From assembly GCF_003018255.1 (NCBI RefSeq), contig NZ_CP027440.1: 64,000 nt of DNA; one strand, written 5' to 3'. The DNA is from Escherichia coli (GTDB lineage: Bacteria; Pseudomonadota; Gammaproteobacteria; Enterobacterales; Enterobacteriaceae). Positions 36,353-36,643 of the stretch are shown piece by piece (position 1 is the stretch's first letter; every line of letters begins with the position of its first letter). The translations under genes and the position numbers were made by a program. The notes beneath the pieces were generated by a model. The model did not search any database, was not told where the DNA came from, and worked only from the letters and a program-made list of their open reading frames with translations.

Positions 36353-36643
36353 TTCCCGTGATGGATAAATAAGGGTAAGATTCCGCGTAAGTATCGCGGG
36401 GGCGTAAGTCTGGTTATAAGGCGTTATTGTTGCAGGCAGTTTGGTCACGGCCAGCGCGCAGCAACCGGAGCGTACAAAAGTACGTGAGGATGGCGAGCAC
36501 TGCCCGGGGCCAAAATGGCAAATAAAATAGCCTAATAATCCAGACGATTACCCGTAATATGTTTAATCAGGGCTATACTTAGCACACTTCCACTGTGTGT
36601 GACTGTCTGGTCTGACTGAGACAAGTTTTCAAGGATTCGTAAC

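Follow-up and report, generated by a model that had tools for sequence, protein, structure and literature searches.

The long pyrH-frr spacer of Escherichia coli probably combines an ancestral frr control region with a dispersed palindromic repeat

The pyrH-frr Locus and Its Spacer

The window, which is the whole stretch of 64,000 nucleotides of Escherichia coli DNA analysed in this study, contains the rpsB-tsf-pyrH-frr-dxr-uppS region. On the plus strand, the pyrH gene (positions 35627-36352) ends with a TAA stop codon at 36350-36352, and the frr gene (36644-37201) starts with a GTG codon. The two genes are separated by a spacer of 291 nt (36353-36643), whose sequence was found by megablast to be 100% identical to that of E. 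coli K-12 BW25113. Window positions were converted as NC_000913.3 coordinates minus 156228. For comparison, 79 loci of other Gammaproteobacteria were retrieved with the RRF protein, a pyrH match being required. The loci listed by this RRF scan did not include Salmonella, Citrobacter, Klebsiella pneumoniae, E. albertii, or E. fergusonii. A length of 291 nt is atypical of the pyrH-frr locus: among the 79 loci listed, the spacers of Enterobacterales are mostly 113-172 nt, and most of those outside Enterobacterales are about 30-135 nt. The initial annotation, which had pointed to a long gap between pyrH and frr, was right about both its limits and its unusual length.

Is there any gene or known RNA in this spacer? 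A search of the region 33000-38000 against Rfam 15 at E ≤ 10 gave nothing meaningful inside the spacer. The sole match there was sX9, whose score of 22 bits is half the gathering score of 44 (E = 0.82). No Pfam match was obtained for the 76-aa minus-strand ORF (36532-36762) or for three ORFs of 32-36 aa in the spacer, in line with the earlier view that no credible ORF exists here. The C-terminus of the 76-aa ORF is unconserved even in E. coli because the end of the ORF falls in a strain-variable repeat, which is described below.

Promoters, Start Sites, and Leader of frr

It had been presumed in the initial annotation that the spacer holds the frr promoter and leader, and published SMRT-Cappable-seq data of strain MG1655 bear this out with two start sites on the plus strand (PMC6131387). 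The major frr start site is at 36388 (K-12 192616), which gives a 5′UTR of 256 nt in the long allele of the spacer. In the two data blocks of that study, 475 and 556 reads begin at this position; of these, 284 and 222, respectively, end at the frr terminator at 193491/193490 (PMC6131387). The transcript from 192616 matches the frr-only unit of RegulonDB and is marked 'same' in the SMRT-Cappable-seq table (PMC6131387). The -10 element of this major promoter, P1, is TAAGAT (36376-36381), which ends 7 nt before the start site. A -35-like hexamer, TTCCCG (36353-36358), lies 17 nt upstream of the -10 element, and its assignment as the P1 -35 element is inferred via the spacing to the mapped start site.

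The minor start site is at 36585 (K-12 192813), with a 5′UTR of 59 nt, and appears in the operon-table entries frr-dxr and frr-dxr-ispU (PMC6131387). The -10 element of the minor promoter, P2, is TATACT (36574-36579) and ends 6 nt before this start. In total, frr has eight transcript contexts, including the read-through transcripts pyrH-frr and tsf-pyrH-frr, and frr is also reached by long reads that come from pyrH, tsf, and rpsB (PMC6131387).

Since such read-through transcripts exist, there is no effective pyrH terminator. This agrees with a consensus scan of the plus strand from 36200 to 36800, which found no terminator-like site, and with the initial annotation, in which no hairpin with a U-tract had been seen. 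A rho-independent pyrH terminator was therefore rejected, as there is no plus-strand site in this region and the long reads continue into frr. The same scan revealed no plus-strand promoter at its threshold between 36200 and 36800. Both real promoters were missed by the scan because their -35 hexamers are weak.

P1 and P2 each show the features of a sigma-70 promoter, i.e., a mapped 5′ end, a -10 element at a distance of 6-8 nt, and conservation. As for the tandem-promoter leaders of translation-factor genes, the conserved -10 elements of frr fit both mapped start sites. The frr promoter and its start sites are already established knowledge, and Shimizu and Kaji reportedly described the frr promoter in 1991.

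Conservation was assessed by aligning 15 short spacers of Enterobacteriaceae and Erwiniaceae. A TTTCCGT/TTCCCGT block right after the pyrH stop codon is conserved across Enterobacteriaceae, and TT(T/C)CCG is kept at the position of the P1 -35 element in most Enterobacteriaceae of the alignment. No other upstream part of the spacer is as well conserved as the block GGTAAGATTCCGC, which contains the P1 -10 element; at this position, GGTATATTCTG is found in Pantoea and Erwinia. The block CTATACTTAGC, containing the P2 -10 element, hardly varies within Enterobacteriaceae, which does not hold for Erwiniaceae. The proximal leader (36604-36643, plus strand) is also conserved. It includes the Shine-Dalgarno sequence AAGGA (36631-36635), located 8 nt before the GTG at 36644. 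The leader sequence TGGTCTGNCTGAGACAAGTTTTCAAGGATTCGTAAC with the Shine-Dalgarno sequence is conserved across Enterobacteriaceae, with the GTG codon next to it, and CAAGG and the GTG start are invariant in all 15 aligned taxa. The stretch from the P1 start to P2 varies in length and sequence, and this is exactly where the E. coli repeat sits. In the conservation profile, the P1 -10 element, the P2 -10 element, and the leader with the Shine-Dalgarno sequence stand out as conserved, and the segment holding the insert is variable. The simple arrangement considered in the initial annotation, namely, a single frr promoter with an unstructured and poorly conserved leader, does not fit this locus: there are two conserved promoters and a conserved proximal leader, and the insert is highly structured yet dispensable.

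Two small hairpins are predicted in the conserved parts of the plus strand. The first one, AUCACGG-AAUAAUUC-CCGUGAU (36341-36362), spans the pyrH stop codon and is predicted whether the long or the short allele is folded. The second one, CACAC-UUCCACU-GUGUG (36583-36599), lies at the P2 start and is predicted in all folds. Other genera have a hairpin-capable segment of different sequence at the position of this P2-start hairpin.

Long and Short Alleles of the Spacer

The spacer was matched in 5424 of the 5426 complete E. coli genomes by megablast, in full length in 3512 genomes only. The remaining E. coli genomes match the spacer as two pieces spanning 149 nt. When one long and two short alleles were aligned, it was found that the short allele is 149 nt in length and has 'ATC' where the long allele has 145 nt. 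These 145 nt (36403-36547, with ends ambiguous by 2-3 nt), which only the long allele has, belong to a dispersed family of imperfect palindromic repeats, and the pairing of the repeat hairpin spans about 36408-36545. A 43-nt probe showed that the empty-site junction is intact in 1897 of the 5426 genomes, including O157:H7, IHE3034, and O25b:H4-ST131. Thus, the long allele is present in about 65% of the E. coli genomes and absent from about 35%. Its carriers include K-12 and some O103 and O145 strains. In about 1000 genomes, the element at pyrH-frr has an identity of 95-99%. No repeat copy was found at the pyrH-frr locus of any of the 79 gammaproteobacterial loci listed outside E. coli.

The long allele reads GGGGG-CGTAAG... 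at the left junction and ...GACGA-TTACCC at the right junction, and the short allele reads GGGGG-ATC-TTACCC. A clean target-site duplication is not seen at the pyrH-frr junction, where several decompositions are possible (TTA/TAA or CTTAC/GTAAG). The polymorphism is best read as having arisen by insertion, although a precise excision would look the same.

The repeat sits within the 3′ arm of a predicted stem-loop that seems to be ancestral. Its 5′ arm and inner hairpin, GGGUAAGAUUCCGCG-UAAGUAU-CGCGGGGG (36373-36402, plus strand), overlap the -10 element and the start of P1. In the short allele, the 5′ arm pairs with AUCUUACCC to form a hairpin with a predicted energy of -25.5 kcal/mol. This short-allele hairpin is GGGUAAGAUUCC.GCG-loop-CGC.GGGGAUCUUACCC, with a perfect stem of 9+5 bp. 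Comparable hairpins were found in Pseudocitrobacter, Superficieibacter, Enterobacter BIGb0383, Escherichia sp. ESNIH1, and Pseudescherichia; they have the same conserved GGUAAG block in the 5′ arm and compensatory differences in the 3′ arm. In the long allele, a remnant of the 3′ arm, UUACCC (36548-36553, plus strand), has been displaced by the insert. The displaced UUACCC is nevertheless predicted to form a helix with GGGUAA (36373-36378) in the read-through fold of the long allele, and this helix closes around the small hairpin as well as the repeat hairpin.

The insert changes the leader of the major transcript. The 5′UTR from P1 is 256 nt in carriers and about 114 nt without the repeat, a difference of 142 nt. 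In the 256-nt frr 5′UTR, the repeat occupies +16 to +160, and its imperfect hairpin of roughly 48-60 bp extends from +21 to +158. Relative to the P2 start, the 3′ end of the repeat lies at -38, and its A-rich right arm, as read from the sequence, is at roughly -46 to -77.

The Repeat Family

How common is this repeat? By sensitive blastn, copies were found at a median of 5 places per E. coli genome, with a range of 1-8, and at 6 places in the K-12 entries. The genomes without the pyrH-frr copy all keep full-length copies elsewhere, with 80-90% identity. Copies with 85-88% identity to that at pyrH-frr over about 120 nt lie at pheM-pheS, between the pheM attenuator and pheS, and at qseG-glrK (glrK is also called qseE). 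A half copy of the repeat was found on a plasmid. All annotated E. coli copies are intergenic, and the element is non-coding and 149-153 nt in length. No further copy was found inside the 64-kb window by blastn with a word size of 7.

The family was also scanned for in metagenome contigs with a conserved right-arm pattern, which gave at least 120 loci. Among the matches listed, there are five large clusters, namely, pheM-pheS with 27 loci, qseG-glrK with 12, pyrH-frr with 8, and two further E. coli clusters of 25 and 12. In the 25-locus cluster, the flanking ORFs are presumably rlmL and ycbX. In the 12-locus cluster other than qseG-glrK, I take the flanking ORFs to be cysP and ucpA. There are at least about 30 further insertion sites with other flanking genes in the metagenome contigs, several of which come from one sample.

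The family consensus of about 150 nt is TAAGAGCCTATCCCAGTAGGCGTA.ATTGTTGCAGCCAGTTTGGACACGGACAGCGCGGAA.AACCGGAGCGTACACG.AGTACGTGAGGATT.TGAGCACTGCCCAGGGCCAAAATGGCAAATAAAATAGCCTAATGGGATAGG.TCTAAG, and the sequence at the repeat ends is GAGCCTATCCCAGTAGGCG. Many copies are flanked by TAA...TAA or TTA...TTA, and several are not. The terminal 15 nt or so of the pyrH-frr copy deviate from the family consensus on both arms and are still complementary to each other. In the family, the terminal stems vary more than the interior between copies, which is unusual for a classical TIR-defined MITE. In other respects, the family resembles MITEs: the copies are dispersed, small, non-coding, and intergenic, the palindrome is conserved, and both filled and empty sites exist.

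The pyrH-frr copy folds as RNA with -57.8 kcal/mol (z = -4.9) on the plus strand and with -53.8 kcal/mol (z = -5.6) on the minus strand. In 26 distinct insertions, the 48-pair family hairpin is 90.6% paired, and both partners have changed in 19 pairs, most of which belong to the 18-bp terminal helix. Such values were not attained in any of 500 shuffles, and the pairing fell to 26-43% when the partners were slid by 1-3 columns. The mean folding energy of the family is -59.9 kcal/mol on one strand versus -59.3 kcal/mol on the other strand. There are 103 G-U cells on the plus strand versus 49 on the minus strand, which is a modest excess beside 1012 Watson-Crick cells. Relative to co-directional flanking ORFs, about 13 copies are in sense and 9 in antisense orientation, according to a crude longest-ORF tally. 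Since the repeat folds on both strands, is found in either orientation, and has compensatory changes, its properties fit a palindromic DNA element of the MITE/ERIC kind rather than a strand-specific structured RNA.

A Passenger or a Regulator of frr?

With a probability of roughly 85%, the spacer consists of an ancestral frr control region of about 149 nt and an inserted copy of a dispersed palindromic repeat of about 145 nt. The insertion polymorphism, the multi-copy family, and the conserved hairpin are shown by the present analysis, and the start sites and the read-through by published data. The ancestral part comprises two tandem sigma-70-type promoters, P1 (TTCCCG-17-TAAGAT) and P2, followed by the leader and the Shine-Dalgarno sequence. 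As pyrH has no efficient terminator, the promoters of pyrH, tsf, and rpsB also contribute to frr transcription by read-through. The repeat would have landed in the one part of the spacer with poor conservation, downstream of the P1 start and upstream of the -35 region of P2. An apparently unexplained gap in a well-studied E. coli operon region is thereby explained without any new proposal. The initial annotation had allowed for a small RNA or a regulatory structure in the extra length. Instead, about 145 nt of it are a dispersed palindromic repeat without an Rfam match, which shows no strand preference and is missing in 35% of E. coli and at every sampled locus outside E. coli.

Does the repeat have any effect on the frr transcript? 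Published RNA 3′-end data have about 13 RNAtag-seq and 7 Term-seq read starts at K-12 192780-192781, against a background of 0-3 (PMC10687069, Fig. 6b). These minor 3′ ends correspond to 36552-36553 on the plus strand, 5-6 nt past the foot of the repeat hairpin, and the signal is weak. Another 3′ terminus, called in that study, is at K-12 192820 (window 36592), in the loop of the P2-start hairpin (PMC10687069). The simplest reading of the weak 3′ ends is that exonuclease trimming stalls at the stable hairpin, or that termination is very weak. Thus, some RNA-level effect exists. On the other hand, most P1 reads reach the frr terminator, and the hairpin is therefore no strong attenuator. The repeat seems to be tolerated at pyrH-frr as a passenger. 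If it has an effect at all, this would be at most modest and would mainly concern the stability or 3′-trimming of the leader RNA, not a dedicated control of frr.

Alternatively, the hairpin may have been co-opted as a cis-regulatory element of the frr leader, for example, as an attenuator, as a site for RNase III, or as a 5′-proximal structure that protects the mRNA from RNase E, so that carriers and non-carriers would differ in RRF expression. I regard this as unlikely. It is true that the hairpin occupies +21 to +158 of the major frr mRNA, that the weak cluster of 3′ ends follows its foot, and that another copy follows the pheM attenuator in the leader of pheS. With a share of 65%, the long allele is common, and it is also old, so it may bring a selective benefit. 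There is also an analogy in Yersinia, where ERIC repeats regulate neighbouring genes via RNA hairpins (PMC2267715). However, frr is an essential gene, and yet 35% of E. coli and all sampled non-E. coli loci are without the repeat. The share of P1 reads reaching the frr terminator (284/475 and 222/556) also speaks against strong attenuation. Furthermore, the family has no strand preference in folding or orientation, and P2 and the read-through supply frr independently of the P1 leader.

A more specific version of co-option is that the hairpin sets the RRF level in about 65% of E. coli, by shielding the 5′ end, by acting as a landmark for RNase III or exonucleases, or through its right arm acting like an UP element of P2, and that the copy at pheS acts likewise. 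I consider this rather improbable. If it were true, it would mean strain-level, MITE-borne tuning of essential translation genes, including that of Phe-tRNA synthetase. Major E. coli lineages have frr 5′UTRs whose lengths are 142 nt apart, which matters when this essential gene is engineered or its expression is compared between strains.

Relationship to Known Repeat Families

Bachellier and Hofnung reportedly described, in 1996, the RSA sequences, also called BEE95, as dispersed enterobacterial intergenic elements. Blattner et al. (1997) are said to have counted RSA among the K-12 repeats, with a length of 152 bp and 6 copies in K-12. The element of this study resembles RSA in its length of 149-153 nt, its 6 places in K-12, and its dispersed and intergenic habit. 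In the literature searched, I found no sequence or description of the family beyond a reference title naming RSA/BEE95. The family name is probably RSA, on the basis of the length, the copy number, and this one reference title, and the element would be a DNA palindrome of the MITE-like type. In any case, this kind of element is already catalogued and ordinary.

The elements most similar in form are the ERIC/IRU repeats. Like the pyrH-frr element, they are imperfect palindromes of about 130-150 nt, intergenic, transcribed with their neighbours, polymorphic in presence and absence, and with a similar apex. The two differ in that sequence similarity is limited to about 21 central nt and the termini are different. 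The copy number in E. coli also differs, being about 5-6 for the pyrH-frr family versus 19-21 reported for ERIC (PMC2267715). Membership in ERIC/IRU was rejected: the 127-nt E. coli ERIC consensus (PMC2759123, Table 1a) aligns with the repeat over only about 21 central nt, with scores of 22-27.

Could the insert nevertheless be a diverged ERIC/IRU element? The middle of the element, GGAGCGTAnnnAAGTACGTGA, is similar to that of ERIC, GGAGCTTACATAAGTAAGTGA, at the corresponding position. Just 1 of 300 shuffles attains the local alignment score of the pyrH-frr copy, and 7 of 300 attain that of the family consensus. The size, palindromic form, and intergenic habit are alike. When the ERIC primers were placed in register on the insert, 14 of 22 and 15 of 22 positions matched. 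However, nothing aligns to the 127-nt consensus beyond about 21 nt (PMC2759123), and the termini are ...GAGCCTATCCC... versus TATACCC... in ERIC. A true ERIC, present in the rpsB-tsf spacer of the window, aligns with a score of 138 over 119 nt, versus the scores of 22-27 obtained here. A diverged ERIC is thus very unlikely, although a remote kinship to ERIC may exist.

Other repeat families were also compared. RU-2/YPAL and RU-3 of Delihas were rejected, since their sequences are plainly different; RU-3 is REP/BIME. The pyrH-frr element resembles REP/BIME in that a stable repeat hairpin is present in the transcript with RNA 3′ ends just downstream, as expected for a barrier to 3′-5′ exonucleases. 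In contrast to REP/BIME, which is located at the 3′ end of operons or between cistrons, the pyrH-frr element lies in a 5′UTR, is about four times longer, and has an unrelated sequence.

Insertion or Deletion?

The direction of the allelic change was also considered. If the 291-nt spacer were ancestral in E. coli, the short allele would be a secondary deletion. In its favour, the junction lacks a clean insertion with a target duplication, and the strains labelled O145:H28 have the long allele while O157:H7 has the short one, which hints at a distribution that is perhaps more than clonal. Against it, the segment occurs in none of the other genera among the loci listed, whose spacers are about 133-172 nt. 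The limits of the indel agree within 2-3 nt with the ends of the repeat family, which were defined independently from other loci. Moreover, the short allele has the perfect 9+5-bp hairpin of the ancestral type, which is unlikely to result from a random deletion. A secondary deletion is therefore highly improbable, and insertion of the repeat remains the preferred reading.

It is also very unlikely that the spacer encodes a small RNA of its own, whether acting in trans or processed from the 5′UTR, of about 165 nt from 36388 to about 36553. The upstream start and the minor 3′-end peak after a very stable hairpin would delimit such an RNA, but it has no Rfam match, its 3′-end signal is just about 7-13 reads, and its body would be almost wholly a multi-copy repeat that a third of strains do not have. 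Moreover, no site with a hairpin and a U-tract was seen in the consensus scan, and most P1 transcripts run on into frr.

Repeats in the pyrH-frr Spacer of Other Lineages

True ERICs were found to have been inserted independently in the pyrH-frr spacer of Kluyvera and of Enterobacteriaceae RIT691. Palindromic repeats have thus hit this spacer independently in at least three lineages, i.e., E. coli, Kluyvera, and Enterobacteriaceae RIT691. The pyrH-frr spacer is a convenient natural test bed for the effects of hairpins on a leader.

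Palindromic repeat insertions in the pyrH-frr spacer

As well as the E. coli repeat, a dispersed, MITE-like imperfect palindrome of about 150 nt that lies at window positions 36403-36547, other palindromic elements were found between pyrH and frr in other lineages. The spacer is about 275 nt long both in the Enterobacteriaceae bacterium RIT691 (locus L011:2226-2500) and in Kluyvera genomosp. 1 (L022:2225-2500), because a true ERIC, a member of the separate 127-bp enterobacterial palindromic family, has been inserted in each. In RIT691, the ERIC lies between the -35 and -10 blocks of P1, the major frr promoter, while that of Kluyvera occupies the same variable segment of the spacer as the E. 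coli repeat. Counting the E. coli repeat with these two ERICs, this single spacer has received at least three independent insertions of palindromic repeats across lineages.

In the window, the sequence GCGTAAGT occurs twice, 17 nt apart. One occurrence (36385-36392) is part of the loop of an older, ancestral stem-loop overlapping the P1 -10 and start site, and the other (36402-36409) falls on the repeat's left junction. This could be due to chance or could be a remnant of the insertion process.

Downstream, a small hairpin (CACAC-UUCCACU-GUGUG, 36583-36599) lies at the start of P2, the minor frr promoter; only transcripts from P1 or from read-through are able to fold it. One of the called RNA 3′ ends, at K-12 position 192820, falls within its loop. 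At the P2-start position, the segment found in other genera differs in sequence but could likewise fold into a hairpin.

Structure and other copies of the repeat

In the family alignment of repeat copies (A3), the terminal helix of 18 bp, which pairs columns 24-42 with 157-175, varies more than any other part of the element, yet 13 of its 18 pairs covary; the interior is far more conserved. Transposase-recognised terminal inverted repeats would be expected to show the opposite pattern. The pattern seen here may have arisen by correction of one arm from the other within the palindrome, or from the presence of subfamilies with different ends. A longer subfamily of about 210 nt was found, among the matches listed, in metagenome contigs L148, L114, L136, L167, L176, and L203; it has an additional module of about 60 nt in the right arm, ahead of GAGCACTGCCC, with small hairpins of its own (…CCCTTCGGGC… and GTTCAAAA…TTTTGT).

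A sister copy lies in the E. coli pheM-pheS interval (L004:1189-1335), in the pheS 5′UTR, downstream of the annotated Phe leader/attenuator (1046-1170) and ahead of the start of pheS (1379); its orientation matches that of the frr copy. Thus, the leaders of two essential translation genes hold the repeat hairpin. A half copy consisting of the right arm was found on the 103-kb plasmid pEGY2 (NZ_CP023144.1; L007:1201-1249), where genes for an MBL-fold hydrolase and an ABC-transporter ATPase flank it, and, among the matches listed, again in metagenome loci L183 and L199.

Elements around rpsB

The t44 (tff) RNA, a leader element of rpsB, was detected at 33532-33618 (Rfam, 83.5 bits, above the gathering score), as expected at this locus. 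The rpsB-tsf spacer of the window has an ERIC/IRU element at 34389-34507, which was aligned to the published consensus over 119 nt with a score of 138. Two Rfam matches overlap it: V_AS5 (34384-34507, below the gathering score) and CssrA (34457-34566, 136 bits, above the gathering score). Since the CssrA match overlaps a true ERIC, an ERIC arm seems to be part of what this Shigella 'sRNA' family is made from.
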